From positions 256,001 to 320,000 of the forward strand of contig CAVSLC010000023.1 in assembly GCA_963728565.1 (NCBI GenBank): a stretch of DNA of 64,000 bases, read 5' to 3'. Below the pieces are notes generated by a model. That model had not been told where the DNA came from and made no database searches. It saw only the letters and a program-made list of their open reading frames with translations. This document shows, piece by piece, positions 1,326-36,915 of the stretch (the first letter of the stretch is position 1; every line of letters starts with the position of its first letter). Source of the stretch: an uncultured delta proteobacterium. Lineage in GTDB: Bacteria; Desulfobacterota; Binatia; UBA9968. A program made the position numbers and the translations under genes.

Positions 1326-1832
1326 ATGGAAGATTTCGCGGATGTAGACGCTATGTTCGGACTCACGGCCAGGCACGACGAGATTTCGCCGATCGAAAGA
1401 TTGCTCAACCAGTTTGAAGCGCACGAAGCCAAGGAAGATCGGGCCCTGGAGTTCTACAAAAAAACTATTGCACATATGCCGAGCCCGCTTACTCGATTCG
1501 TGATGCAACTAATCATCTCCGACGAAGAGAAACACCGGGCGCTGATTCACGCCATGGTTGCGACCCTAACAGGCAGTCTCAACTGGACCAAGCCGCCCGA
1601 CGGTCTCGAAGGCATCGGCGAGTTTTCGAGCTTGAACGGCAAGGTGCGCGAGGTTACCGATGAGCTTATCCGGCTGGAGAGAGAGGGAATTCGCGAAAAT
1701 CATAACCTCATCAAAGAAAGCAGCGGCTATTACCACGGCTTATTCAAAGTCTTGCTCGACAGCATGATCCGCGACTCGGAAAAGCACGTGGAGTTGCTGG
1801 AATTTCTCCGAGAGAATCTCAAAGAAGCATGA
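1326..1832 (+). CDS. Ferritin-like (rubrerythrin-type four-helix bundle) protein
   Basis: Two ExxH motifs (DEEKH, DSEKH) in a duplicated helical pattern; RBS aggag. Confidence 0.7.
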   Translation: MEDFADVDAMFGLTARHDEISPIERLLNQFEAHEAKEDRALEFYKKTIAHMPSPLTRFVMQLIISDEEKHRALIHAMVATLTGSLNWTKPPDGLEGIGEFSSLNGKVREVTDELIRLEREGIRENHNLIKESSGYYHGLFKVLLDSMIRDSEKHVELLEFLRENLKEA

Positions 1833-13179: not shown

Positions 13180-13524
13180 ATGGCTACATCACATGCAGTC
13201 AATTATCGAACGTATGCGCGTGCTGTGATTGCCATAGCCATGATGATCGTCTGGAGTCTGGTTGCCGTCTCCGGAGTTTTGCTCTGGCTAGCTCCACATG
13301 GACCGCGTTCCGGCTATCGATTGTTGCTCTTGGATTTAACCAAACGGGAATGGGGTGAGTTGCACACGTGGTTCAGCTTCATTGCCATTGCGATCACAGC
13401 CGCGCACCTGATCATCGATTGGCGTGGCCTGTGTGGCTGTATGAAATATCTCGCCAGTGGGCATCGGCGCGGCGCCGCTGCGAGTCACGAGGCACCAAGC
13501 GCCGGTGCAGGGGTTGAGGTCTGA
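13180..13524 (+). CDS. DUF4405-family small membrane protein (cytochrome b-like)
   Basis: SGVLLWLAP...[12 protein letters not shown]...AHLIIDW pattern with two His in TM helices. Confidence 0.7.
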
Positions 13525-13528
13525 CCTG

Positions 13529-15223
13529 GTGGCAAACGTTAGAGAGCGCGCAATTGCCTATTTTTCCATGGAGATCGGTCTCGTGACGGGGATGCCCACC
13601 TACAGCGGTGGGCTAGGCGTGCTCGCCGGCGACACCATTCGCGCAGCCGCCGACCTTAAGGTTCCGATGATTGCCGTTACCTTGCTTCACCGCAAGGGCT
13701 ATTTTCACCAGCGGCTGGACAGTCTCGGCCATCAGATCGAGGATCCGGTGAATTGGGCCGTGGATGATTTTCTTACGGAGTTGCCGCAGCGCGTTTCTGT
13801 GACGATCGAGAGCCGTGCGGTATATGTCCGGGCGTGGAAGTACAACTGCGCAGGTCCGGGGGGTTTCTCGGTGCCTGTCTATTTTCTTGACAGCGATTTG
13901 CCGGAGAATTCCGAGTGGGATCGGACGCTGACCGATTATCTATACGGCGGCGATCTGCATTACCGGCTCTGTCAGGAAGTTATCCTCGGTATCGGTGGGG
14001 TGCGCATGCTGCGGGCCTTGGGAGAACTTGAGATGGCACGCTACCATATGAACGAGGGCCATTCGAGTTTGCTTGCGCTTGAACTTTTGGATGAAGAAGC
14101 GCGGCGCGCTGGCAGGCCGTCGCCGAACCATGACGACGTGCAAACCGTCCGCGAAAAATGCGTCTTCACCACGCATACGCCCGTGGCTGCAGGACACGAT
14201 CAGTTTCCGATCGCGTTAGTGCATCGGATCCTCGGCAGAAAAGAGGTCGAGGATATGAAAGACGTCTTCTGCTGCGGCGACGTTTTGAATATGACTTTTT
14301 TGGCGCTCAACTTAAGCCATTACGTCAACGGTGTCGCCAAGAAGCACGGCGAGATTACCCGGCTGATGTTCGCCGACTACAATATCGACGCGATCACCAA
14401 TGGCGTTCACGCGGCCAGTTGGGCGGCTAAGCCGTTCGCCGAGCTTTATGACCGCTACATTCCCGGCTGGCAGCAGGACAGCTTTAGCCTTCGCTATGCG
14501 TTGAGCATTCCGAAGCACGAACTTGGGCAAGCCCACGCCGCTGCCAAGAAGCAGTTGCTCCATGTCGTCAATCTGGAAACGAATGCCGGCATGGATCTTG
14601 ACGTCTTCACTCTCGGTTTTGCGCGGCGCGCGGCGACATACAAACGCGCCGATCTGTTGTTTACCGATACCGCCCGTCTCACCGCTATCGCGACACAGCA
14701 TGGCGGGCTGCAAATTGTGTACGCCGGAAAAGCCCATCCTCGAGACGAAGCCGGAAAAGAGCAAATCCGGCGAATCTTTCAAGCCCGAGACCTGTTACGC
14801 GACAAGATCAAGATCGCCTACCTCAGTAACTACAGTATGGAAATGGGCAAGATGATGACCTCAGGGGTAGATCTCTGGCTCAACACGCCGCAGCCGCCGA
14901 TGGAAGCGTCCGGCACGAGCGGCATGAAAGCGGCGGTCAATGGCGTGCCGAGCCTCAGTGTGCTTGATGGTTGGTGGATCGAAGGATGCATCGAAGGTGT
15001 CACCGGTTGGTCGATTGGGCCGCCGGACGGAACGGCAGGTGCGGCAGATCATGATCGGGACGCAACTTCACTTTACGACAAACTGGACCAAATTATCCTC
15101 CCGTTATATCAGCACAAGCCCGATGGGTACCTGGACGTGATGCGTCACGCAATCGCGCTCAACGGCTCGTTCTTCAACACCCATCGGATGCTCCAACAGT
15201 ATGTGTTGAAGGCATACTTCTGA
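13529..15223 (+). CDS. glgP: Alpha-glucan (glycogen) phosphorylase
   Basis: [25 protein letters not shown], and the PLP-lysine motif [10 protein letters not shown]; GTG start inferred. Confidence 0.95.
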
Positions 15224-15236
15224 TCCCAATGAGTCG

Positions 15237-17936
15237 ATGACTCGCGACAAAGCATGGTACCGCTCGAGCCTGCCCGAAGTATTCGAAGCGTTGGGCAGCA
15301 ACGCGGACTCCGGGTTGAGCAGCGACGAGGCGAAACGGCGCCTGCTCGAATATGGACCCAATGAGCTGCAGCGCGCCCACCGCGTATCGGTCTGGGAAGT
15401 CTTCGCAGCGCAATTCAAGAATCTTTTGATCGTTATCCTGCTAGTGGCGGTCGTCTTGTCGGCTATTCTCGGCCAAGTGATCGAAGCGGTGGCGATCGGC
15501 GTGATCATCCTCTTTGCCGCGTTGCTCGGGTTCTATCAAGAGTATCGGGCCGAGCGCGCGCTCGAAGCTTTGCAAGAAATGGCCGCACCTACCGCGGCGG
15601 TGCTTCGAGATCGTCAAGAGTTAAATATCCCGGCGCGCCATGTCGTGCCGGGAGACGTCGTCTACCTGCGCAGCGGCGACAAGATCGCAGCCGATGGTCG
15701 CCTGTTCGAGGCTGTCAACCTGCAAGTCGACGAGGCTGCGCTCACCGGAGAATCCGTGCCCGTGGAAAAGCAGACGCTGGCGCTGCCCGAGGGAGAACTG
15801 GCCGTCGCGGATCGAACCAACATGGTTTATGCCGGCACGATTGTCACCTACGGGCGGGGCCGCGCCGTGATCGCGGCGACCGCCATGGCCACTGAGTTCG
15901 GCCGGATTGCAGAGTCGCTCCAGTCAGTGGTGCCGAGCAAGACACCGCTGCAGGAGAATCTGGCGAGAGTCGCCAAGGTTCTTGCTCGCATCGCTCTGGC
16001 CATCGTCGTCGTGATTGTCGGCGTGGGCCTGCTTCGCGGCCAGGCTTTGTTGGAGATGGTCATCTTTGGCATTGCCCTGGCAGTGGCGATTGTTCCCGAG
16101 GCATTGCCCGCGGTCGTCACTATCTCGCTCGCGCTCGGCGTGCAACGCATGGCGCGGCGCAACGCTCTGGTGCGCCGTCTTCCGGCGGTGGAGACTCTCG
16201 GTAGCGTGTCGGTGATCTGTTCGGACAAGACCGGCACGCTGACGAAAGATGAGATGACGGTACGTAAGATTCTGGTTTCAGGAAAGCTGCTGGACGTGTC
16301 GGGGGCCGGATATGAACCTGAAGGCGTCTTTACACACCAGGGCCAGAGGGTCGAGCCGAGCGGCGCGCTGGCGGTGTTGTTGCAAGCCGCGGCGCTGGCC
16401 TCCGATGCGCGTCTATTGAGGCCCGAGGGTAACATGGGTGAAGAGGGTGCGTTGCCATGGCGGATCAAAGGCGATCCGACCGAAGGAGCTTTGATTGTCG
16501 CCGGCGCCAAGGCCGGATTGGACAAATCCCGGCTCGACGAAAATTTCCCGCGCATCAACGAGATCCCGTTTACTTCCGAGACTAAACGTATGACCACGCT
16601 GCACGGCACCAAGAACGGTCACGTTGCCTACGCCAAAGGAGCGCCTGAGGTGATTCTGCGGTCTTGTTCTGCGGCGCTGCACGATGGCGGCATCGTGCCG
16701 CTCGACACGTCGGTTCGAGAGATGATCCTGGCTGCTGCGCACGGCATGGCCGAGCACGCCTTACGAGTGCTCGCGGTGGCCTATAAGCCTGGCGCAAGGA
16801 TCGAGGACGCGGAGCATGACATGATCTTTCTCGGCATGTTCGGCATGATCGATCCGCCGCGTCCCGAAGCCAAGGACGCCATTGGTGTGTGCATCCGCGC
16901 AGGCATCCGACCGATGATGATTACCGGCGATCACCCGACGACGGCCGCGGCGGTAGCGCGGGAGTTGGGATTAATAACGACCCAAGCCGTCGTGACCGGT
17001 GCCGATCTCGATCGCATGGACGACGAAGATTTTGCCCGCGGAGTAGAAAATATCGCAGTTTATGCCCGGGTATCCCCAGCGCATAAACTGCGCATCGTCA
17101 CGGCACTGCAAGAAAGAGGCGATCGAGTCGCCATGACCGGCGACGGAATCAACGATGCGCCTGCGCTGCGCAAGGCCGATATCGGCATCGCCATGGGCAT
17201 GAGCGGCACGGACGTAACCAAGGAAGCGGCGGCGATGACGCTTACCGACGACAACTTCGCGTCGATCGTCGCCGCGGTCGAAGAAGGCCGCGCCGTTTTC
17301 GAGAACATAAAAAAATATTTGATGTTTCTCCTGTCGTCGAACTTGGGCGAGATCGTCCTTCTGGCCGGCGCGTCGGCTATGGGCTGGCCTCTGCCGCTGA
17401 GCGCTGTGCAGATTCTCTATGTGAATCTCGCGACCGACGGTTTGCCGGCTTTGGCTCTCGCCGTCGATCCGCACGAACCGGGTCTCATGCATCGTCCGCC
17501 GCAAGATCCGCGCACGGGCCTCTTCACTCGGCCGGTGGTGACGCTGATGGTCGTCGGAGGTCTCTGGTCGGCGCTGGTGAATATGACCTTGTTTGGTTGG
17601 GCGCTTCACTCGGGACGAAGTCTGGCCCACGCCATGACAATCGTTTTCACCGGACTGGTGCTGATCGAATTCCTCAAAGCCTACAACTTCCGCTCGGACC
17701 GGCGCTCGGCGTTGATCCGACCTTTCGCCAACAAATGGCTCAATCGCGCGATCGCCTGGGAGTTCTCGCTGCTCGTGGCAGTCATCTATTTACCGTTTTT
17801 TGCGTTGGCGCTGGGCACCTTAAGTTTAGCTTGGATGGATTGGCTCGTGGTCACTGGCGCAGCACTGACGATTTTTCCGGTGCTCGAACTGGCGAAGTGG
17901 CTGGAGCGGCGCGGCTGGTTCGGCGCCCCGCTTTAG
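15237..17936 (+). CDS. Cation-translocating P-type ATPase (P2A, Ca2+-ATPase-like)
   Basis: TGES, PEAL, DKTGT, KGAPE, TGDGIND and NLATDG motifs. Confidence 0.95.
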   Translation: MTRDKAWYRSSLPEVFEALGSNADSGLSSDEAKRRLLEYGPNELQRAHRVSVWEVFAAQFKNLLIVILLVAVVLSAILGQVIEAVAIGVIILFAALLGFYQEYRAERALEALQEMAAPTAAVLRDRQELNIPARHVVPGDVVYLRSGDKIAADGRLFEAVNLQVDEAALTGESVPVEKQTLALPEGELAVADRTNMVYAGTIVTYGRGRAVIAATAMATEFGRIAESLQSVVPSKTPLQENLARVAKVLARIALAIVVVIVGVGLLRGQALLEMVIFGIALAVAIVPEALPAVVTISLALGVQRMARRNALVRRLPAVETLGSVSVICSDKTGTLTKDEMTVRKILVSGKLLDVSGAGYEPEGVFTHQGQRVEPSGALAVLLQAAALASDARLLRPEGNMGEEGALPWRIKGDPTEGALIVAGAKAGLDKSRLDENFPRINEIPFTSETKRMTTLHGTKNGHVAYAKGAPEVILRSCSAALHDGGIVPLDTSVREMILAAAHGMAEHALRVLAVAYKPGARIEDAEHDMIFLGMFGMIDPPRPEAKDAIGVCIRAGIRPMMITGDHPTTAAAVARELGLITTQAVVTGADLDRMDDEDFARGVENIAVYARVSPAHKLRIVTALQERGDRVAMTGDGINDAPALRKADIGIAMGMSGTDVTKEAAAMTLTDDNFASIVAAVEEGRAVFENIKKYLMFLLSSNLGEIVLLAGASAMGWPLPLSAVQILYVNLATDGLPALALAVDPHEPGLMHRPPQDPRTGLFTRPVVTLMVVGGLWSALVNMTLFGWALHSGRSLAHAMTIVFTGLVLIEFLKAYNFRSDRRSALIRPFANKWLNRAIAWEFSLLVAVIYLPFFALALGTLSLAWMDWLVVTGAALTIFPVLELAKWLERRGWFGAPL

Positions 17937-17947
17937 GGGAATCAGGG

Positions 17948-18079
17948 ATGATGCTTTGGCTGCAGTTTGCGGCAATGACGGCGGTGCTCGTTATCGCTGG
18001 GAGCAAACTTTCTAAGTACGGCGACATTGAAAAGCCCAAGCCTACGATAACCCTTGTATTAGCGCCCGGTCTTTCTTAG
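17948..18079 (+). pseudogene. Truncated N-terminus of a sodium:calcium antiporter-like protein
   Basis: MMLWLQFAAMTAVLVIAGSKLSKYGD resembles CaCA-family N-termini; similarity stops after about 27 codons. Confidence 0.55.
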
Positions 18080-18228
18080 TTCTTGGCTTCTGTCCCACAC
18101 GATTTCGATTATGCCGATTCTCTGAACGCCCCAGAACGCTTTTTCTCACAGCTGCAAATTTACGGGTTGCTTTTTGTCAAAATCGCCACCGAGCAACCCG
18201 TGGAGCTCAACCGATCTCTCCTTTTGAA

Positions 18229-18244
18229 TGGTATGCCGCTTGCT
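18229..18244 (+). promoter_or_regulatory. Putative sigma54 promoter
   Basis: TGGTATGCCGCTTGCT, about 60 nt upstream of ATG 18307. Confidence 0.7.
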
Positions 18245-18306
18245 CCCAAAAAAACTAAAAACTGCCGCCGCAAACTGCCCGGTGCAGGGCTGGAAGGAGC
18301 AGGTAT

Positions 18307-19260
18307 ATGTCTCGAAGCGAAAGACAGGGCGAAATTACGCCGGAGCAACTTAGGCATCGACAGATCCATAACTACTGGGCAGGAGACTTGAGTAGAAGAG
18401 TTTATCTACTGCGGCGGCAGAGAAAAGCCATTCTGGACAACTGCCGGCGGATCGCCGTGGTGGGTGCCAGCAGCGACCCCAACAGTCGGAGCTATCTCGC
18501 CATTGAGAGGCTGCTTGGCCTCGGCCTGGAAATCATTCCGATATTTACCGATCGCGAAAGCTTTCTTGGCTTGCGCTGTTTTCGAAGTTTGCGTGACGTT
18601 CCGGGCAAAATCGATATTGTGCAGATCTATCGCAACGGCGGTATCGAATTGGTCGAGCTGGCGCGCGCGGTCGTGGATAAAGGCGTGACCGCGTTTTGGA
18701 TCGAACAGGGAGTCGCGGGATCACGAGAGGTCGAGGATATTCTGGCTAACGGTCACGTCCAGCTGGTGGAGTACGAGAGTCTAGAAACCGAGTATATGAA
18801 ACATGTCCCCTTCCCAGCAGCGCCACTCTCTGTGGCTCGCAAGGACCGGAAGACGACTAAGGTTAAGGAAAGAATGTCTAAAAATCCTGCGACGGTGAAA
18901 CCGGATGACGGGCTCAAAGATGCGATCTGGAAAATGGAGCATGGCCACTTCCGCCACCTGCCGGTGGTGGATGAAAAGGACAAGCTGATCGGCATGCTGA
19001 CCGATCGCGACATTCGCCTGGTCCGGCCGTCACTTGCCTTCTTAAACAAGGAGGAAGCCGATGTGCAACTCTGGTCAATCGCGGTGCAACAAGCCGCCGT
19101 GTTCGATCCCGTCCGCGTCAAGCCGGAAAATTCGTTGAAGGAGGCGGCCGATCTGATGTTACGCTGGCATGTCGGCGGACTACCGGTGGTCGACGATCAT
19201 GAAAACGTCGTCGGCATGATCACGTATACGGACCTATTACGCGAGTTCGTGGGGCAGTAA
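18307..19260 (+). CDS. CoA-binding (YccU-like) domain fused to a CBS pair
   Basis: IAVVGASSDPNSRSY...SLRDVPGKIDIV...FWIEQG, followed by two CBS repeats. Confidence 0.85.
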   Translation: MSRSERQGEITPEQLRHRQIHNYWAGDLSRRVYLLRRQRKAILDNCRRIAVVGASSDPNSRSYLAIERLLGLGLEIIPIFTDRESFLGLRCFRSLRDVPGKIDIVQIYRNGGIELVELARAVVDKGVTAFWIEQGVAGSREVEDILANGHVQLVEYESLETEYMKHVPFPAAPLSVARKDRKTTKVKERMSKNPATVKPDDGLKDAIWKMEHGHFRHLPVVDEKDKLIGMLTDRDIRLVRPSLAFLNKEEADVQLWSIAVQQAAVFDPVRVKPENSLKEAADLMLRWHVGGLPVVDDHENVVGMITYTDLLREFVGQ

Positions 19261-19394
19261 GCCGTTGCGCAAGCGTACGCTTTTGGTTTGCGAGCGCACG
19301 GAGAATTCTTTTCAGTCTTTAGAATGAAAGCGGCCGCCTCTCCGAAAGAAGAGAAAGTGCTCGGTGGCCTCCGAGCAAGCCAGTCGATGCATCG

Positions 19395-19410
19395 TGGCAC
19401 TTCTCTTGCT
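19395..19410 (+). promoter_or_regulatory. Putative sigma54 promoter (near-perfect consensus)
   Basis: TGGCACTTCTCTTGCT, 45 nt upstream of ATG 19455. Confidence 0.8.
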
Positions 19411-19454
19411 CTTTTGGCGATTCATGGAAGTTGAACAAATGACAAGGGGGAAAC

Positions 19455-20171
19455 ATGTTCACTGACAAAATCGAGCTCAACGATTTAGATAAAATGGATG
19501 CGGAATATAAAGATCTACTCGGGCGCGTGTTGACGATCCAAGCCGACTGCGAGATCGGCGGACCGCACCTCTATGTAGAAACGATGCTGCCGGCGGCGCC
19601 CAGCAAGCTCGATCAACTGATCGTCGCGCGCACGGCGGCCGAGGAGATCGACCATTTCCGCAAAGTGGCGCGAGTGGCGGGGGATATGGGGGTCGAAGTT
19701 TCATTTGTGCTGAGCCAGCCCAACGAAAAGCGTTTCGTCGACTCCTTCCGTGGTCTCATCACAACCTGGGAAGACCATGCCGTCTTCGGCTTTTTGATCG
19801 ATCGGGTCGGGCGATACCAGCTTGAAGAATTCTATGACTGCAGTTATCTGCCGCTGCAGCGAATTCTTCCGGACATTGTCACAGAAGAACTGGGACACAT
19901 CGAATACGGTTACAACAAAACCCTTGAACTCATGTCCAAGGGTGACGAGCAAAAAGAGCGCGTCCAAAAGGCGATAGATTATTGGTACGTTCGCGCGCTG
20001 GACATGTTCGGTCGCAGCGAATCCAAACGCGCCGAGCGCTACCTTTATTGGGGACTAAAAAGACGCAGCAATGAGCAGGCTCGCGAAGACTACATCCGTG
20101 AAGTCAATCCGATCCTGCTGAGCTTGGGTCTCAAGGTTCCCGATCCGCTCGAAGGCCGCCGCTATATCTGA
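19455..20171 (+). CDS. PaaA/PaaC/BoxB-like ferritin-superfamily diiron protein
   Basis: QADCEIGG, AP..., EEIDH and EELGH (two ExxH), QKAIDYWYVRALDMFG, WGLKRRSNEQAR, LGLKVPD. Confidence 0.85.
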   Translation: MFTDKIELNDLDKMDAEYKDLLGRVLTIQADCEIGGPHLYVETMLPAAPSKLDQLIVARTAAEEIDHFRKVARVAGDMGVEVSFVLSQPNEKRFVDSFRGLITTWEDHAVFGFLIDRVGRYQLEEFYDCSYLPLQRILPDIVTEELGHIEYGYNKTLELMSKGDEQKERVQKAIDYWYVRALDMFGRSESKRAERYLYWGLKRRSNEQAREDYIREVNPILLSLGLKVPDPLEGRRYI

Positions 20172-20185
20172 CAAAGGAGAACCTT

Positions 20186-20377
20186 ATGCCGCAAGCAGCA
20201 CCTGATACGGAAAAGCTCGACGAGCATCTACTCGAAGTCGTCCGCGCCCTGCATGGGGCGGTGAAGCAGGGACTATCCCACATGAATGACGCCAAAGTGA
20301 TGGATAAAGCGATCGCTGATAGTAAAGAAATTCTCGATGTCATTATGGCGGGAGAGGTCAAGGCGTGGCTGAACTGA
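20186..20377 (+). CDS. Small hypothetical protein
   Basis: 63-aa ORF with AAGGAG RBS, inside the operon. Confidence 0.6.
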   Translation: MPQAAPDTEKLDEHLLEVVRALHGAVKQGLSHMNDAKVMDKAIADSKEILDVIMAGEVKAWLN

Positions 20378-20411
20378 GTTCGGCGGAAGTTCGGCGCGGA
20401 AGGAAATTTTT

Positions 20412-20879
20412 ATGAGCGAGGGAAAAACTTATTTCTACGAGACTGAAGTCGAGTGGACAGGCGCAAAGGACCTGAAACTTAGCGGCGGCCAGCAGCCTTC
20501 GATTGCTGCCGGGGCGCCGCCGGAGTTCCATGGCCGGGAGGAAAACTGGTCCCCTGAGCATCTGTTCGTCGCGTCGCTAAACAGTTGCTATGTGCTGACA
20601 CTGATTGCGATCGCGGAATTCTCGAAAATCGCTCTCGTTAGTCTGTCTTCCACGGCGAAGGGAAAATTAGAGAAGCTGCCAGGGAGCGGTTATCAGATCA
20701 CCGAGATTGTCGTAAAGCCAAAGGTCGTTCTTGCGTCGGCCGGCGATCTCTCGCGCATGCCGCGGATACTGGAAAAAGCCAAAGAGAGCTGTTTTGTCTC
20801 CAACTCGATCAAGAGCACGATCAAGATCGAACCCGAAGTCTTTCATCGTCAGACCCAGACCTCTCCCTGCCCTTTGTGA
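20412..20879 (+). CDS. OsmC/Ohr family protein
   Basis: PPEFHG...WSPEHLFVASLNSC...KAKESCFVSNSI (two catalytic Cys). Confidence 0.92.
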   Translation: MSEGKTYFYETEVEWTGAKDLKLSGGQQPSIAAGAPPEFHGREENWSPEHLFVASLNSCYVLTLIAIAEFSKIALVSLSSTAKGKLEKLPGSGYQITEIVVKPKVVLASAGDLSRMPRILEKAKESCFVSNSIKSTIKIEPEVFHRQTQTSPCPL

Positions 20880-21033
20880 GGAGTTCCGGATTGAGGCATC
20901 TGCGCGGGAGCGGAAGCGCAGTAACCGATCGACGTGATATCTGCATCAAACCGCGGCTGTTTGGCTGCAGAAAGCCTCGAGAACTATCCAGAGGAAGCGC
21001 AGTATGATGCGCGTAGAAATCCTCCCAGGTTAA

Positions 21034-21963
21034 ATGGAACGCCCCGGTCTTACTCGCTTCGCATGGCTCTCGATCGCCGCGGCCTTGGCTACCATTGCTC
21101 TGAAGGCTCTGGCGTATTTCGTCACCGATTCCGTAGGGCTGTTGTCGGATGCACTGGAGTCATTGGTGAATCTGGCTGCGGCTCTGATGGCGCTGGCAAT
21201 GCTGACTGTTGCCGCTCGACCGCCTGATGAGATTCATGCCTTTGGCTACAGCAAAGCCGAATATTTCTCCAGTGGCGTTGAAGGGGCGCTGATTGTCCTC
21301 GCCGCGGCGATCATCGCCTGGACGGCGGTGCCACGGTTGATTACGCCACAGCCCTTGGAGCAAGTCGGTACCGGTCTGGCGGCATCGATCATAGCGGCGG
21401 CGCTCAATTTTTTGGTTGCCCGCCATTTGCTCAGCGGCAGCAAACAGTATCGCTCCATCACACTGGAAGCGGATGCCCATCACCTGATGACCGATGTCTG
21501 GACGTCGGCCGGTGTGGTTGCCGGAATCGCGATTGTCGCCCTGACCGGCTGGACGCGTCTCGATCCGGTGATTGCGCTGTGTGTCGCCGTTAATATTTTA
21601 TTGATGGGAGTGCGACTGCTGCGCCGGTCGTTGCTTGGACTTTTAGACACGGCTTTGGGTCGCACCGAAGAAAAACTTATAAAAGGAATCCTCAGCCGAT
21701 ATGCCGGTCAGAATCTTTACTATCATGCGCTGCGCACGCGGCAGGCAGGAGTGCGGTCGTTTATTTCCTTCCATGTGCTGGTGCCGGGAGAATGGACCGT
21801 TCAGCAAGGGCATGATCTGGTCGAACGACTCGAGCGCGATATACGCACCGCGATTCCGGGAGCCACCGTGTTTACTCACCTCGAGCCGATCAATGACCCG
21901 TCAGCTTGGCAGGACTTAACGCTTGATCGGACAGATGATGTAATCCGCAGCAAAGGTAGCTGA
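21034..21963 (+). CDS. Cation diffusion facilitator (CDF/FieF family) transporter
   Basis: [41 protein letters not shown] and HLEP. Confidence 0.95.
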
Positions 21964-22053
21964 TGCAAAATCAAAGGATCATGGTTTAATGAAAGCGCGT
22001 AGTAAAATCATAAAGCCTAGATTGCGTTCCCATAAACAAAGGAGAAGCCGTTT

Positions 22054-22206
22054 ATGCCTGACTGGTTGTGGTTCGTCGCTTTTTTCGTGGCCTACATTGT
22101 GCTGATGCGCTGGGTGCTGCCTTATCTGGGCGTGCGAACTTGAATGGCCGGTGACGTCGAGTCTCGACGCACTAGCAACAAAGAGCAACGCACAGCGGAA
22201 AAGTGA
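22054..22206 (+). CDS. Candidate Sec-containing single-TM microprotein MPDWLWFVAFFVAYIVLMRWVLPYLGVRT-U-MAGDVESRRTSNKEQRTAEK (29 aa if TGA is a stop)
   Basis: AAGGAG RBS, hydrophobic helix, in-frame TGA at 22141-22143 followed by a strong hairpin; paralog at 25747 has TCA at the same codon. Confidence 0.6.
22147..22176 (+). promoter_or_regulatory. Candidate bacterial SECIS element for TGA 22141
   Basis: GGTG-a-CGTCGA[GTC]TCGACG-CACT hairpin; apical loop starts with GU after a 17-nt spacer from UGA. Confidence 0.55.
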
Positions 22207-22453
22207 TGCCGGGAAGCATCGAGATTAATGGAAATCAGGTCCAGCAGACACCGAGGTCGCCTTGCCCGGTGGAATAAGTTCTCATTCCAGCAGTTCCTAG
22301 GATCGATTTAAAGAGTCAGTTGCAGCGAATCGTATTCTGATGAGCATGGAATCACGGCTCCTCATTTTCATAAATGCAAATTAGTCTGACCTTTTTCGCA
22401 GGTCTGGCAAGCCCTGACGGCTAAATTCCTCAAACCGGAAACAGAGTCAGTGG

Positions 22454-22469
22454 TGGCATATCGGTTGCT
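22454..22469 (+). promoter_or_regulatory. Putative sigma54 promoter for the exporter operon
   Basis: TGGCATATCGGTTGCT; differs by one base from the site at 26059. Confidence 0.78.
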
Positions 22470-22550
22470 CTTCTCTAAGCCGTGACCCTGGTTGCGCTCG
22501 AAGTTTGCACAAACGCAACAACACTGGGTCGGTGCAGGAGGAGAGATAGT

Positions 22551-23828
22551 GTGAAATCTTACCTGGGTATGGGCCGCAGTCGGGTGTTGCTGGTTTGCGG
22601 TGCGCTGGCGATGTTTGCGGCTGCTTTGTGGCTGTGGCTCCGCCCCGCCACCGTGACCACCGCCGAAGTGAGCGCCCGCGAGATCAGTCCAGCTATACAC
22701 GCGGTCGGGACGGTGGAAGCCAGGGTCCTGGTTCAGCTGGCCGCCAAGATCGGCGGGCGAATCAGCAGAATGCATGTCGATCAGGGTGACACCGTGCGAG
22801 CCGGCCAGATCCTTGCTCAACTGGAGGATTCTGAATCGACTGCGGAGGTTCAACGCGGCGCTGCGAACTTGGAACGAGCCAAGCTTGCTTTACATGCGCA
22901 GCAAGCAGCCCTGCTGCGGGCGCAAGCAGCACTCTCCGCCGCTGAAGCAATCGTCCTCAAAGCGCGCGCAAACCGTGCGCTTGCTTATGCCAATGCGGCG
23001 CGCTGGGGAAAGCTCGAGGCCGCGGAACTCGTAGCCAAGATCGAGCTCGATGAACGGGCTAACGCCGCCGAATTGGCTGATGCTGAGTTAAAAAGTGCCG
23101 AGGCGCTGCGCGAAGCGGCAGCCAAAGAGGCCGCGGTTCAGCAAGTCGCATTGAAGATCGTTCCCCATGACATCGCCGCTGCAGCGGCTGCCCTTGCTTC
23201 GCTTCAGGCTAGAAAAGCCGACACGGTAATCGCCAGTTCGACCGACGGTTATATAGTGAGCCGGGAAGTTGAAACCGGCGGCGCGGTCAATCCCGGAACG
23301 CCAATTCTCAAGCTCGCTGATCCGCGCACCATCTGGGCTACCGTGTATGTCGACGAGCGCGAAGCAGGTTCTCTCGAGATCGGAAACGCAGCCGACATCA
23401 CGTTGCGCTCGATGCCGGAGCGGGTCTTGACTGGCAAGGTCGCGCGCATCCGGCGCGAAAGCGATCGCGTTACCGAGCAGCTCACGGTGGACATAAGCTT
23501 CGATACACCGCCGGATCAATTGCGCCTCGGCCAGCAAGCAGAGGCGCTAATCCGAGCGGCGCCGCGAAATGTTATTGCCATGTCCGATGCAGCAGTTGTG
23601 CAGTCCGCGAGGGGAGCCGGCGCCTGGATCGTTGTCGCTGGCCGCCTGCGCCTCCGGCCAGTGCGGTTAGGGGCAGTCGATCCCTCCGGCTGGGTTGAAG
23701 TACTGCAAGGACTTTCTGTCGGCGATCACGTGGTGGTCGCTCCCGGCAAATTCTCAGATCCTAAAAACGAGGGGCGGCGCGTCATCGCGCAGCCGCGATC
23801 CTCAACCATCGCGGTCGCCAGCCAGTAA
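22551..23828 (+). CDS. Efflux periplasmic adaptor (MFP/MacA-like) subunit
   Basis: N-terminal TM, IGGRISRMHVDQGDTVRAGQILAQL lipoyl half-motif, long Ala-rich coiled coil, VLQGLSVGDHVVV; AGGAGGAG RBS before GTG. Confidence 0.9.
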   Translation: MKSYLGMGRSRVLLVCGALAMFAAALWLWLRPATVTTAEVSAREISPAIHAVGTVEARVLVQLAAKIGGRISRMHVDQGDTVRAGQILAQLEDSESTAEVQRGAANLERAKLALHAQQAALLRAQAALSAAEAIVLKARANRALAYANAARWGKLEAAELVAKIELDERANAAELADAELKSAEALREAAAKEAAVQQVALKIVPHDIAAAAAALASLQARKADTVIASSTDGYIVSREVETGGAVNPGTPILKLADPRTIWATVYVDEREAGSLEIGNAADITLRSMPERVLTGKVARIRRESDRVTEQLTVDISFDTPPDQLRLGQQAEALIRAAPRNVIAMSDAAVVQSARGAGAWIVVAGRLRLRPVRLGAVDPSGWVEVLQGLSVGDHVVVAPGKFSDPKNEGRRVIAQPRSSTIAVASQ

Positions 23829-23832
23829 ACTC

Positions 23833-25029
23833 ATGAATCTTGCGATTCGAGACGTAAGATACCGTTTTGGCCGCTTTCTTCTGACCGCCTTCGGCCTTGG
23901 TTTGCTGCTTGCGACCGTCATGGCAATGGGCGGAATTTACCGGGGCATGGTGGAGGACGCCCTCAGCATCGTGCGCGCCCCTGACGCTGATCTGTGGGTG
24001 GTGCAGAAAGACACCAATGGTCCGTTCGCCGAGACCTCAAGGGTGCCCGATGATCTCCATCGCGTGATGCGCGCGGTCCCGGGGGTGCGCGAAGCCAATG
24101 CGATCGCATTTCAGACCATTCAGCTCGACTATGAAAACAAGTCGCTCCGGGTGCAGTTGATTGGCTACCGACCAGGAAATTTAGGGGCGCCCTCAGCGGT
24201 GGCGGCAGGCCGTCCTCTCACAACCCACCGCTATGAGATGGTGTTGGACCGCAAGGCGGGAATCCCCGTCGGTGCACGCCTGCCACTGGGAAGGTCGACC
24301 TTTACCGTGGTCGGCTTAACGGAGGGCATTGTTTCGAGTTCCGGCGATTCGACGGCATATGTATCGCTGCAGGACGCCCAGGAACTGCAGTTTCTCAAGG
24401 GCAACGAGGCGGTGCGCAACGAGCGGGCGCGGCTTGTCGCCGACTTACAATCAAACCCAATACTCACCGGAGTCCCGGCGGCTTCGCTGTTTTCGATAGT
24501 GCAGAACACCAATTTGGCCAACGCCATACTCGTGCGGATCGAGCCTTGGGCTAATGCTGAGGAAGTCGCTCGACGAATCGAGCGCTGGAACCATTACCGC
24601 GCGCTGACCACGGCGGAGCAAGAAGATGTATTGGCCAAGAATGTGATCGAACGGGCCCGCCAGCAAATCATGCTTTTTCGCATTATCCTGCTCGCAGTAT
24701 CGACGGTGATCATCGCGTTGATTATCTACACAATGACGATAGAGAAGACGCGCGATATAGCGACATTGAAGATCATTGGCGCTCCGAACATGAAAATCGT
24801 CAGTTTGATTCTACAAGAGTCGGTCGCCCTTGGGGTGCTCGGGTATGGATTCGGCGCGGCGCTCATCAATCTGGTCTATGAGTATTTTCCGCGCCGGGTT
24901 GCGATTCTTGCCTTTGATCAGGGCGTCCTGTTCGGCATCGTTTTGGCGATCTGTGTCATCGCAAGTATTCTCGGGATAAGACGCGCTCTTGGCATTGATC
25001 CGACCACCGCGATGGGAGGGGGCGCGTAA
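23833..25029 (+). CDS. ABC transporter permease (FtsX/MacB-like, type VII)
   Basis: MNLAIRD...[21 protein letters not shown]; four-TM topology. Confidence 0.92.
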
Positions 25030-25754
25030 TGGCCGTGTTGGTAGCGGAGCAGATCGTTAAAATCTTCGGTCAGGGCGAGGGCCAAGTCGCCGCTTTGAAG
25101 GACGCCTACGTTTCCATCGAGGCGGGAGAGATGGTTGGCTTGATGGGGCCGAGTGGTTCGGGCAAGACGACGCTTCTGCGGGCTCTCTCATTAATCGATC
25201 CGCCGACCAGCGGTCAGATCACCATCGGTAATGAGCTGGTGTTTCAAGGCTCCCGAGTGCTGACGGATGATAGGCAGCTACGCCGCAGGCGCATGGGAAT
25301 CATCTTCCAGGCCTACAATCTCATTCCGTTTCTAACCTCAGTGGAAAACGTCGCGCTTGTGCTGACGCTCAACGGAATTTCGAGAAACGAGGCGTTGGCG
25401 CGCGCGCACAACTTGCTCAACCGCCTCGAACTGGGGCATCGTGCCGACACCTACCCAGCGACGCTTTCAGGCGGGGAGCAACAGCGGGTTGCCGTCGCCC
25501 GAGCTGTCATCAATGAGCCAGTGATGATTCTTGCGGATGAACCGACGGCAGCCCTCGACACCGAACGAGGCAAGGCGGTGATGGATCTGCTCCGGCTGCT
25601 TGGCCGCGTGCAGCGAGCAGCCGTGATCGTTGTGACACACGATGAAAGAATGATCGAAGGCTTTGATCGCATCTATCATATGATTGACGGCCGGATCACG
25701 AACCATCTGAGTTCGGCAGAGCGCCAAGCGACGGCGGATGAAATCCATGCGTGA
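25029..25754 (+). CDS. ABC transporter ATP-binding protein (LolD/MacB-like)
   Basis: [24 protein letters not shown] and VTHD motifs. Confidence 0.95.
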
Positions 25755-25880
25755 CTGGTTGTGGTTCATTGCATTTTCTCGCGCTGGGTGTTGCCTCGGC
25801 TGGCGGCGCCCGGTTCAATGGCCCACGTCCACGCGACCGCACGAAAAATAAAGCAAGCTAGCAAAGGGAAAGTGAAATGA
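25747..25880 (+). pseudogene. Decayed paralog of the 22054 microprotein (19-nt deletion; TGA codon is TCA)
   Basis: [10 protein letters not shown] then, after a frameshift, RWVLPRLAAPG-S(TCA 25815-25817)-MA, aligning codon for codon with RWVLPYLGVRT-TGA-MA. Confidence 0.7.
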
Positions 25881-26917: not shown

Positions 26918-27439
26918 ATGGATTGGCTACGTAGAGAAGAGTGGCCCTGGTGGCAGGCGGGTTTATTACTCGGCCTGCTAAACATGGCGGCATTTTTCAC
27001 GGCGGACTATTACCTGTCGGTTTCGACGACTTTCTCGCGCGCCGCGGCAATGGTGGTTGGACTGGTCGCACCGGAGCATGTGGCGGCAAACGCATACTGG
27101 CAGAAGGTTAAGCCGATAGTCGATTGGCAATTCATGCTTGTTCTGGGAATTCCACTCGGCGCCTATCTGGCCGCGCGACTGAGTCAAAAACCCGTCGAGT
27201 TCACCGGATCGCTTCCCGATATGTGGGTCAGCCGATTCGGTACGAGCAATGCGCAGCGTTGGGTTGTCGGTATATTGGGCGGTATTTTCGTCGGTTTCGG
27301 TGCGCGCCTGGCCGATGGCTGAACCAGCGGCCACGCTCTCAGTGGAGGGCTTCAAATGGCCGTGAGCAGTTGGATCTTTCTGATCGCGATGATGATCTCG
27401 GGCACGATCATGGCGCGGCTAATTTTCCGGAGGGTGTAG
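26918..27439 (+). CDS. YeeE/YedE (PmpA-like) sulfur/selenium transporter-family protein, predicted selenoprotein (TGA 27320-27322)
   Basis: GARLADG-TGA-TSGHALSGGLQMAVSSWIFLIAMMISG...RRV-TAG. The family motif is GARxAxGCTSGH, and readthrough restores the last TM helix and ends 2 nt before the next ATG. Confidence 0.9.
27328..27362 (+). promoter_or_regulatory. Bacterial SECIS-like hairpin for TGA 27320
   Basis: CGGCCA-c-GCTCTC[AGTG]GAGGGC-ttcaaa-TGGCCG; GU in the apical loop, 18-nt spacer from UGA. Confidence 0.75.
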
Positions 27440-27441
27440 CT

Positions 27442-28029
27442 ATGGGTCCATTAGAAATTACCGGTCCAGCGCGTCTTGCGCTCGGACTCGCAACCGGAAT
27501 TCTCTTCGGTTTCATTTTACAAAAGGCACAGGTCACCCAGTATCAAAAGATCGTGTCTTTCTTTCGTTGGAGCGACCTGACTGTCCAGAAAGTCATGTTC
27601 GCGGCGATACTCGTCGGTATGGTCGGGGTGTATGCGCTGCATGATCTTGGTTTGGTCAATCTTCACATCAAGCCGACCTTGCTTGGCGCCAATATCCTTG
27701 GCGGCCTGATTTTCGGCATCGGCATGTTGCTCTTGGGCTTTTGACCCGGCACCTGTGCTGCGGCCTTCGGCGAAGGCCGTTTAGATGGTTTGTTTCGCGG
27801 CGTTCTGGGCATTTTGATCGGCGCGGGTATTTACTCGGAAATCTATCCGTTGATTCAGGATAATCTTCTTAAGCTCGGCGATTTCGGTAAATTGACCATT
27901 CCAACCGTCCTAGGGGTCAATCCATGGTTCGTGATCATACCGTTTACGATCATCGTCAGCGGAATTCTCCTGTGGATGGACCAGATTGATAAGCGAAAGA
28001 CGAGTAACGCAAGAGAGTTAACACGATAA
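27442..28029 (+). CDS. YeeE/YedE (PmpB-like) protein, predicted selenoprotein (TGA 27742-27744)
   Basis: GGLIFGIGMLLLGF-TGA-PGTCAAAFGEGRLDG. The family motif is GxCPGT, and the downstream ORF 27790-28029 is in the same frame. Confidence 0.9.
27760..27780 (+). promoter_or_regulatory. Bacterial SECIS-like hairpin for TGA 27742
   Basis: GCGGCCTTC[GGC]GAAGGCCGT; G-first loop, 24-nt spacer from UGA. Confidence 0.65.
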
Positions 28030-36491: not shown

Positions 36492-36915
36492 ATTTAGCGA
36501 CGATGTCATCGAGAGGTTCCGAAGCGTGTCGTGAATTGCCCTACCGGATGATTCGAATGCGATTGAATTTCCAAGACTAAGGAGTGTTCCGTTGCATTGG
36601 AGAAATCGCTGATCCGATTTGTCTCTATTGGTGAAGTCATGACGGCCGATGACCGCGTTCACAGGCAGCGCCGCACATCTTACCGCCGTTGCCAATGACT
36701 CCCGGCAATGCCGCAGGATCTTGGAGAAAAAAACGGAAAAACTGTTCCGTATGGGCCGATCAAGAGCGCGGTTGGAAATCGCCCCCGGATCTTCCATCAG
36801 CAAACACCGGCGTCGCCTTGCCCGCTGGGATAAGCGGTAGAATGGGTGGGTTCTTTTCTAGACCGGAAAATAAACTATTGAATTCAGGCTTGCACAGCTG
36901 ATGTGTGCGCTGCTG

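Follow-up and report, generated by a model that had tools for sequence, protein, structure and literature searches.

A 64,000-nucleotide stretch of DNA from an uncultured delta proteobacterium (GTDB lineage Desulfobacterota, Binatia, UBA9968; assembly GCA_963728565.1, contig CAVSLC010000023.1, positions 256,001 to 320,000 of the forward strand), referred to here as the window, carries a small gene at 22054..22206 of the plus strand that is a candidate for a new family of selenoproteins. A ribosome-binding site (RBS), AAGGAG at 22039..22044 on the same strand, can be seen directly in the sequence 9 nucleotides (nt) 5' of the start codon ATG 22054. The first 29 codons (22054..22140) specify an N-terminus that is short and acidic, followed by a single transmembrane helix and by a motif, LMRWVLPxxGxxT, that is invariant among the relatives described below. 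They are followed by an in-frame TGA (22141..22143), proposed as the codon for selenocysteine (Sec) at residue 30, and then by a further 20 codons in the same frame (22144..22203), the first 9 or so of which are conserved (M-A/S ... ESRR) while the rest is hydrophilic and unconstrained. A terminal TGA (22204..22206) closes the 50-residue read-through product. The 29-codon open reading frame (ORF), 22054..22143 with its TGA included, encodes a strongly hydrophobic peptide, and the 20-codon extension is hydrophilic and basic. An earlier reading made from the letters of this DNA (the sequence-only reading) had proposed that TGA 22141 encodes Sec, and the RBS, the 29-residue ORF, the TGA and the same-frame extension to TGA 22204 all lie where it placed them.

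Downstream of the TGA, again on the plus strand, is a hairpin (22147..22176) that resembles a Sec insertion sequence (SECIS). Specifically, it comprises an apical perfect stem of 6 bp (22155-22160 paired with 22164-22169) closed by a GUC triloop (22161-22163), a bulged A, a lower stem of 4 bp and two further pairs, with 17 nt between the TGA and the loop, and folding recovered the stem, the GU-containing loop and the spacer that had been described from the letters. The minimum free energy over 45 nt is -15.5 kcal/mol (z -2.77), a value equalled by 1 of 200 shuffles; over 60 nt the z-score is merely -1.51. As a chance control we took every mechanical ORF of the window that ends in TGA and has 25 amino acids or more, 425 in total, and folded the 45 nt downstream of each; 22 gave a fold at least as stable, and in 18 of these the frame also stays open for 15 codons or more. 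The combination of TGA and hairpin in this one sequence alone is not beyond chance. As the hairpin is unremarkable in a single sequence, the case rests on comparison among relatives.

The relatives come from one scan of species-representative genomes (one per species), for which six 8-residue words of the read-through peptide, matched exactly, served as seeds. This gave six loci, all in metagenome-assembled genomes, which carry the labels "Deltaproteobacteria" (L001, L002 and L003), Acidobacteriota (L004), Armatimonadetes (L005) and Spirochaetota (L006). The codon homologous to TGA 22141 is TGA in every one of the six, and so in all seven members when the window is included; neither TAA nor TAG, whose presence there the sequence-only reading had named as evidence that would speak against Sec, is ever found. 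The frame then remains open for 15-34 codons, and the read-through products of the family have 50-64 residues. In the seven-sequence alignment the invariant residues (window numbering) are L17, M18, R19, W20, V21, L22, P23, G26, T29, the TGA-encoded residue 30 and S37. Within the 29-codon part the nonsynonymous/synonymous ratio (pN/pS) is 0.08-0.25 and pS is 0.6-0.8, which places synonymous change near saturation (window and L001-L004), and in a comparison of 18 codons across six sequences, 13 are invariant at the first position, 13 at the second and 4 at the third. The low pN/pS and the variable third positions together show that these 29 codons are under strong purifying selection and hence belong to a true gene of the plus strand. 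L001-L003 have a GGAG-type RBS 5' of the ATG at a spacing similar to that of the window gene. A sigma-54-spaced site had also been proposed upstream, and TGGTTTAATGAAAGCG is indeed present at 21982-21997, but it fits only the spacing GG-N10-GC, which we take to be the minimal sigma-54 consensus, and it finds no support as a conserved feature because in L002 and L003 the small gene starts 19 nt after an ABC ATPase gene.

Past the TGA, conservation runs for about 11 codons, with a pN/pS of 0.24-0.75, and then ends abruptly. The codon directly after the TGA is ATG (Met) in six of the seven members and ATA (Ile) in L005. The second codon encodes Ala (GCC, GCT or GCG) or Ser (TCC and AGC) in all seven, and in the switch between TCC and AGC it is the residue that is preserved while the nucleotides change. 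Four members have a Cys codon (TGT or TGC) 4-5 codons after the TGA, with the protein alignment placing one codon fewer before the Cys of L006, and ESRR is present in six. Conservation beyond the TGA and Cys-containing homologues had both been put forward as signs of Sec to be sought in new relatives; the first was found over these 11 or so codons and the second was not, as discussed below. The substitutions further out suggest that the distal tail is, at most, retained for being hydrophilic and largely basic filler. In L003 (2396-2401 of that locus) the second stop of the small gene overlaps the ATG of an acetate kinase gene (ATGA), as with translationally coupled genes.

Folding of all seven members returned a hairpin with G then U in an apical loop of 3-4 nt, 16-23 nt after the UGA. 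The loop, GUC in the window and in L001-L005 alike, lies 17 nt from the TGA in the window and in L001 and two codons further away, at 23 nt, in L002-L005, so that the spacing changes by a multiple of three. Among these six the stem core and the loop are nearly invariant, with 40 of 42 cells pairing, and two of seven pairs show a compensatory change (U-A to C-G and G-C to A-U, with a U-G intermediate): one stem pair occurs three times as U-A, twice as C-G and once as U-G, and the pair beneath the stem is G-C in three sequences and A-U in one. L006 has a hairpin of different sequence with a 4-nt apical loop, AGGU, which again presents G-G-U, 16 nt after the TGA. In the codons that form the hairpin, third positions are invariant in 3 of 5 cases against 4 of 18 upstream, numbers that are too few to test. 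We give more weight to the fixed loop bases and closing pairs than to covariation, as the nearby upstream synonymous sites are saturated, and a loop that is fixed next to saturated synonymous sites points to sequence-specific recognition. In the E. coli fdhF element, the G and U contacted by SelB lie at a similar distance from the UGA. The bacterial SECIS consensus given in PMC13188914, a small apical loop with G (often then G or U) in its first two positions and 16-37 nt from the UGA, describes the hairpins of all seven members.

The window also offers evidence of Sec use in the same organism. Two adjacent YeeE/YedE half-genes on the plus strand (26918..27439 and 27442..28029) contain in-frame TGA codons at 27320-27322 and 27742-27744 and, when these are read through, each falls opposite the Cys of a GGC-x-x-G motif in the YeeE of Spirochaeta thermophila (PDB 8j4c, 6leo). 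On the strength of this alignment, the presence of TGA at the essential Cys of both half-genes is evidence that the organism decodes UGA as Sec elsewhere. PMC13188914 counts YeeE (GUxSG) among the known selenoprotein families; here the family is represented by a protein split into two genes, both predicted to contain Sec. The hairpin of the first YeeE gene has an AGUG loop 18 nt after TGA 27320, and that of the second has a perfect stem and a GGC triloop 24 nt after TGA 27742. The hairpin of the small gene had been said to share its geometry with the first of these, which is roughly the case, but the second YeeE site is the closer look-alike. With its perfect stem and GGC triloop, this second site indicates that, at the level of predicted folds, a G-first triloop hairpin is a form that the genome already uses.

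The small gene is predicted to encode one hydrophobic segment, the best 19-residue hydropathy window being residues 4-22 with a Kyte-Doolittle value of about 2.0. AlphaFold2, run with the seven-row alignment, gave a helix at residues 3-24, a block with a predicted local distance difference test score (pLDDT) of 82-85, with the remainder modelled as disordered (52-59), for a mean pLDDT of 66.5. According to the positive-inside rule, the more positively charged flank of a membrane helix is cytoplasmic, and in six of the seven members there are 4-7 Lys and Arg residues on the C-terminal side of the segment against 0-1 on the N-terminal side. This excess suggests a predicted topology of N-out/C-in, with the TGA-encoded residue about 6 positions past the helix at the cytoplasmic face. 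The original proposal of membrane anchoring with Sec near the surface fits both the hydropathy and the AlphaFold2 model.

We propose that the gene 22054..22206 encodes a 50-residue single-pass membrane selenopeptide of a new family, in which the UGA at codon 30 is read as Sec, and from the sequences compared we put the probability of this at roughly 65%. The comparison for which the sequence-only reading had called supports the Sec reading without proving it. According to this hypothesis, SelB with Sec-tRNA would recognise the hairpin 22147-22176 by its apical GUC loop, which lies 17 nt past the UGA, and would deliver Sec once the ribosome reaches that codon. The peptide would insert N-out/C-in, with a helix of about 22 residues spanning the membrane and the invariant LMRWVLP motif at the cytoplasmic end of this helix, and Sec would sit about 6 residues beyond, at the cytoplasmic face, followed by a short disordered basic tail whose distal part is probably a translated spacer. 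The selenol would be a membrane-tethered nucleophile beside membrane transporters. One possibility is redox activity, in which a selenenylsulfide would form to the Cys that four of the seven members have 4-5 residues further on; others are the carriage of sulfur or selenium and the binding of a soft metal. The decoding by SelB, this topology and any chemistry of the selenol are inferred.

Database searches are consistent with a family that is new. No NCBIfam 20.0 family was found for any of the seven members at E up to 10, and Pfam-A gave no consistent family across them, with single-member hits only at E 0.037 or worse. The best match of a profile search against the PDB had E 0.7, to unrelated membrane helices; Rfam had no match above its gathering thresholds, either in the window or in the loci of the relatives, and gave chance hits only (E 7.7-9) around the gene; and tBLASTn against plasmid and phage collections found no match at E up to 1. 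A kinship with the YgaP-like DUF2892 proteins was considered and set aside when Pfam gave it no support. The 119 prokaryotic selenoprotein families tabulated in 2026 (PMC13188914) include no small membrane peptide with a single helix, and no such family is described in the parts of the literature consulted, although the supplementary tables of PMC12013277 and PMC13188914 may list further candidates. The claim of an unannotated new family is upheld to this extent.

The alternative that survives best, although we consider it unlikely, is that the TGA is a true stop, so that the gene encodes a 29-residue membrane peptide, toxin-like or transporter-associated, followed by a conserved 3' RNA hairpin. 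Such a hairpin, which lies 6 nt downstream, may act in 3' stability, in processing, in contact with a protein or an antisense RNA, or in termination without a U-tract. Type I toxins, KdpF and the sarcolipin-like pump regulators are small single-helix membrane peptides with true stops, and the gene resembles them in the size of 29 residues, the single helix, the transporter neighbours and the existence of a second, decaying copy (see below), which recalls the multi-copy genes of small toxins. In addition, the window hairpin is an almost perfect palindrome and would also form in an antisense transcript.

A number of observations favour such a stop and weigh against the Sec reading. Almost all of the constraint at the protein level sits in the 29-codon part, whereas the codons beyond ESRR have a pN/pS of 0.6-1.2 and, in the 6 columns compared, not one invariant codon position, and the conservation of ESRR itself cannot be separated from that of the hairpin which these codons form. 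Among the TGA-ended mechanical ORFs of the same sequences, 49-59% are followed by an open in-frame run of the observed length, and the open frame alone is therefore near chance. TGA is, moreover, the commonest stop in these sequences, as 35 of the 63 long mechanical ORFs of the window end in it and the second stop of the small gene is TGA in six of seven members, which makes the invariance of TGA weak evidence when taken alone. A Cys codon replaces the TGA in none of the six relatives, a weak negative because the scan was seeded on exact 8-residue words of one peptide; nearly all known selenoprotein families have Cys-containing homologues, according to PMC12013277. The candidate partner Cys is missing from the window, L001 and L003. 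Covariation of the hairpin had been suggested as a check, and the compensatory pairs are there to be seen, but with few sequences they are statistically weak, 65 of 500 column shuffles reaching the observed score. Gene annotation and a tRNA scan found no selA, selB, selD or tRNA-Sec within the window or the loci of the relatives. Finally, the sample is small, as the seven members, under four phylum-level labels, represent only about five independent lineages.

What speaks for Sec over a true stop is the manner in which the region after the TGA is conserved. The loop sequence and the closing pairs, and not pairing alone, are fixed across three phylum labels despite saturated synonymous sites; L006 swaps the hairpin for another that again shows G-G-U at the same distance from the UGA; changes of spacing come in threes; and the Ala/Ser and Cys codons that separate the TGA from the hairpin vary synonymously, to the point of a switch of Ser codon family. 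The conserved TGA, the SECIS-like hairpin, the conserved in-frame codons, the strong RBS and the operon placement all distinguish the gene from the peptides with true stops named above. With regard to type I toxins in particular, the first 29 codons do give a small hydrophobic peptide with one membrane helix, but the RBS is strong and exposed and in L002 and L003 the gene lies close behind the ATPase gene, which seems unlike the tightly repressed, stand-alone genes of these toxins, and neither a sigma-70-like promoter nor an intrinsic terminator turned up in a scan of both strands of 21700-22700. A leader peptide or attenuator was ruled out, as the downstream genes differ between loci or are convergent; from this variation of its neighbours the small gene is judged to be a self-standing unit and not the leader of one particular downstream gene. 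A bacteriocin-type precursor exported by the neighbouring pump was also considered and dropped for want of support. Should the TGA prove to be a true stop, the locus would still encode a small membrane peptide conserved across phyla, together with an RNA hairpin conserved 3' of it, a finding of modest interest.

It is very improbable, in our judgement, that the locus holds two tiny genes coupled through TGA-ATG, the first for the 29-residue membrane peptide and the second for a hydrophilic peptide of about 20 residues starting at ATG 22144. The ATG that directly follows the TGA in six of the seven members is what invites this explanation, but L005 has ATA at that place and yet keeps the rest of the conserved block, there is no RBS-like run of purines in the conserved LGVxT codons ahead, the supposed second peptide is unconstrained in its distal half and the hairpin would start 3 nt inside its ORF. 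We give almost no credence to Sec-independent read-through of the UGA by a near-cognate Trp or Cys tRNA, or to a decaying remnant without function, as, although a decayed copy lies nearby and several genes of the window are fragmented, the window copy is intact with its RBS, TGA and hairpin kept, differs from L001 by 4 synonymous and 1 nonsynonymous change in 29 codons, and belongs to an organism that has, to judge from YeeE, the means to decode UGA as Sec.

As a selenopeptide, the product would have its nearest architectural analogue among eukaryotic proteins. SELENOK and SELENOS have one N-terminal membrane helix and a disordered basic cytosolic tail that contains Sec, with a nearby Cys partner in SELENOS. 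The likeness is one of overall architecture only: there is no Pfam homology, the Sec would be residue 30 of 50-64, about 6 residues past the helix and not penultimate, and the gene is bacterial with its SECIS inside the frame. Among bacterial systems, it is like the genes with an intragenic SECIS, such as those of the YeeE/YedE GUxSG family, in its conserved in-frame UGA and its stem-loop with a small G-first loop 16-37 nt on, and is unlike them in having no homology to the families listed in PMC13188914, in the lack of any Cys form seen and in being far smaller than most at 50-64 residues. It differs further from families of the YeeE type in that Sec would lie in a disordered segment beside a single membrane helix and not in a folded active site. 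There is also a likeness to the short-tail Sec families (UXX-star, KCU-star/DUF466 and the Cys-Cys-COOH protein SaoC), which have Sec near a functional C-terminus and mostly a SECIS after the UGA, and the unconstrained distal tail of the small gene suggests a fit with this picture. However, those families have NCBIfam models, none of which matches the seven members, 15-34 codons follow the UGA here, and in the available sections of PMC13188914 none of them is described as a single-helix membrane peptide. The ABC-transport selenoproteins SaoP, SaoB and SaoX, presented in the Haft and Gwadz preprint, form a different system. Judged by these comparisons, the small gene family is a member of none of the known systems considered.

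A bolder extension of the Sec reading, which we regard as a long shot, is that this is the first bacterial family of single-pass membrane micro-selenoproteins without Cys forms, an analogue of SELENOK and SELENOS that serves as a selenium-dependent transporter subunit and in which UGA decoding couples selenium supply to regulation. Its partners may then be the MacB-type exporter (L002, L003), the P-type ATPase (L002) or the CDF transporter (window), and the peptide would be either cut at 29 residues or completed with Sec, depending on the efficiency of UGA decoding. Confirmation of Sec would by itself establish a bacterial selenoprotein family of a new shape, a membrane-tethered peptide of 50-64 residues with no folded domain and, so far, no Cys forms. 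Such genes escape both standard gene callers, to which they present an ORF of at most 29 codons, and homology-based selenoprotein finders, which need Cys homologues, and thus more of them may exist. If the proposal is true, a selenol held next to efflux systems on the inner side of the membrane would give a testable lead on how anaerobes handle sulfur, selenium and soft metals at the membrane.

The gene had been placed between a CDF transporter and a MacAB-like exporter, and annotation agrees with this. Upstream is a CDF cation-efflux transporter (21034..21963), closest to MntE although under the cut-off of that model, and downstream an operon encodes a HlyD-type adaptor (22482..23828), a MacB/FtsX-type permease (probable start 23833, to 25029) and a DevA/LolD-like ABC ATPase (25029..25754), all on the plus strand. 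Overlapping the stop of the ATPase gene is a decayed paralogous copy of the small gene (25747..25880, plus strand), which matches it by blastn at 63% over 156 columns (E 2e-05) and the family hidden Markov model (HMM) at E 0.0068; this HMM found no further copy in six-frame translations of the window and all the loci. The decayed copy has its first 11 codons in common with the intact gene, after which a 19-nt gap breaks the frame; it has TCA at the position of the Sec codon and forms no hairpin (-6.3 kcal/mol, z +1.42). It has lost TGA and hairpin together.

In L002 and L003 an intact gene occupies the slot of this decayed copy, behind the ATPase gene of an orthologous exporter operon with 73% DNA identity to that of the window, which on present comparison indicates that the ancestral position in this lineage is directly behind the HlyD-MacB-type exporter operon. 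On the same comparison, the window has its intact copy now ahead of the exporter operon and the decayed copy left behind it. L001 and the window share the 3' part of the CDF gene together with the small gene at 88% identity. Between L002 (5047-17693) and the window (13457-25754), blocks with phosphorylase-like, P-type ATPase, CBS/CoA-binding, OsmC-like and ABC exporter genes are reordered at 69.6-72.8% DNA identity, the exporter operon and small gene being shifted relative to the P-type ATPase, which in L002 adjoins the small gene. Elsewhere the neighbours are ThiC (L004) or, in L006, a B12-radical-SAM gene and a PIN gene on the other strand. In L005 (2613-5877) the small gene directly follows genes for two fusions concerned with sulfur trafficking, a metallo-beta-lactamase-rhodanese and a CoA-disulfide-reductase-rhodanese, and has a convergent ferritin-like gene on its other side. 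These rhodanese fusions, and the Sec YeeE genes 5 kb away in the window, may hint at a role connected with sulfur or selenium.

Other features of the window were observed in passing. Just 3' of the small gene, a 27-codon ORF (22228-22311) has 37 nt in common with the end of a tiny ORF about 14.5 kb away (36752-36839), at 86% identity between 22242-22278 and 36798-36834, and both encode a basic motif of the type HR-x-RLARW. This may be chance or a repeated small gene; L001 conserves the ORF 22228-22311 in its first codons only. Between 53697 and 56126 there is a run of short ORFs that encode fragments of two proteins, a thiamine-pyrophosphate enzyme and a solute-binding protein, and look like frame-broken genes or assembly indels. 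At 693-1832, a DoxX-like ORF ends at TGA 1254, behind which a very stable hairpin can form (-21.1 kcal/mol), and the frame stays open for 191 codons, into a ferritin-like ORF (1326..1832) in the same frame; here the hairpin is probably a terminator between two genes.

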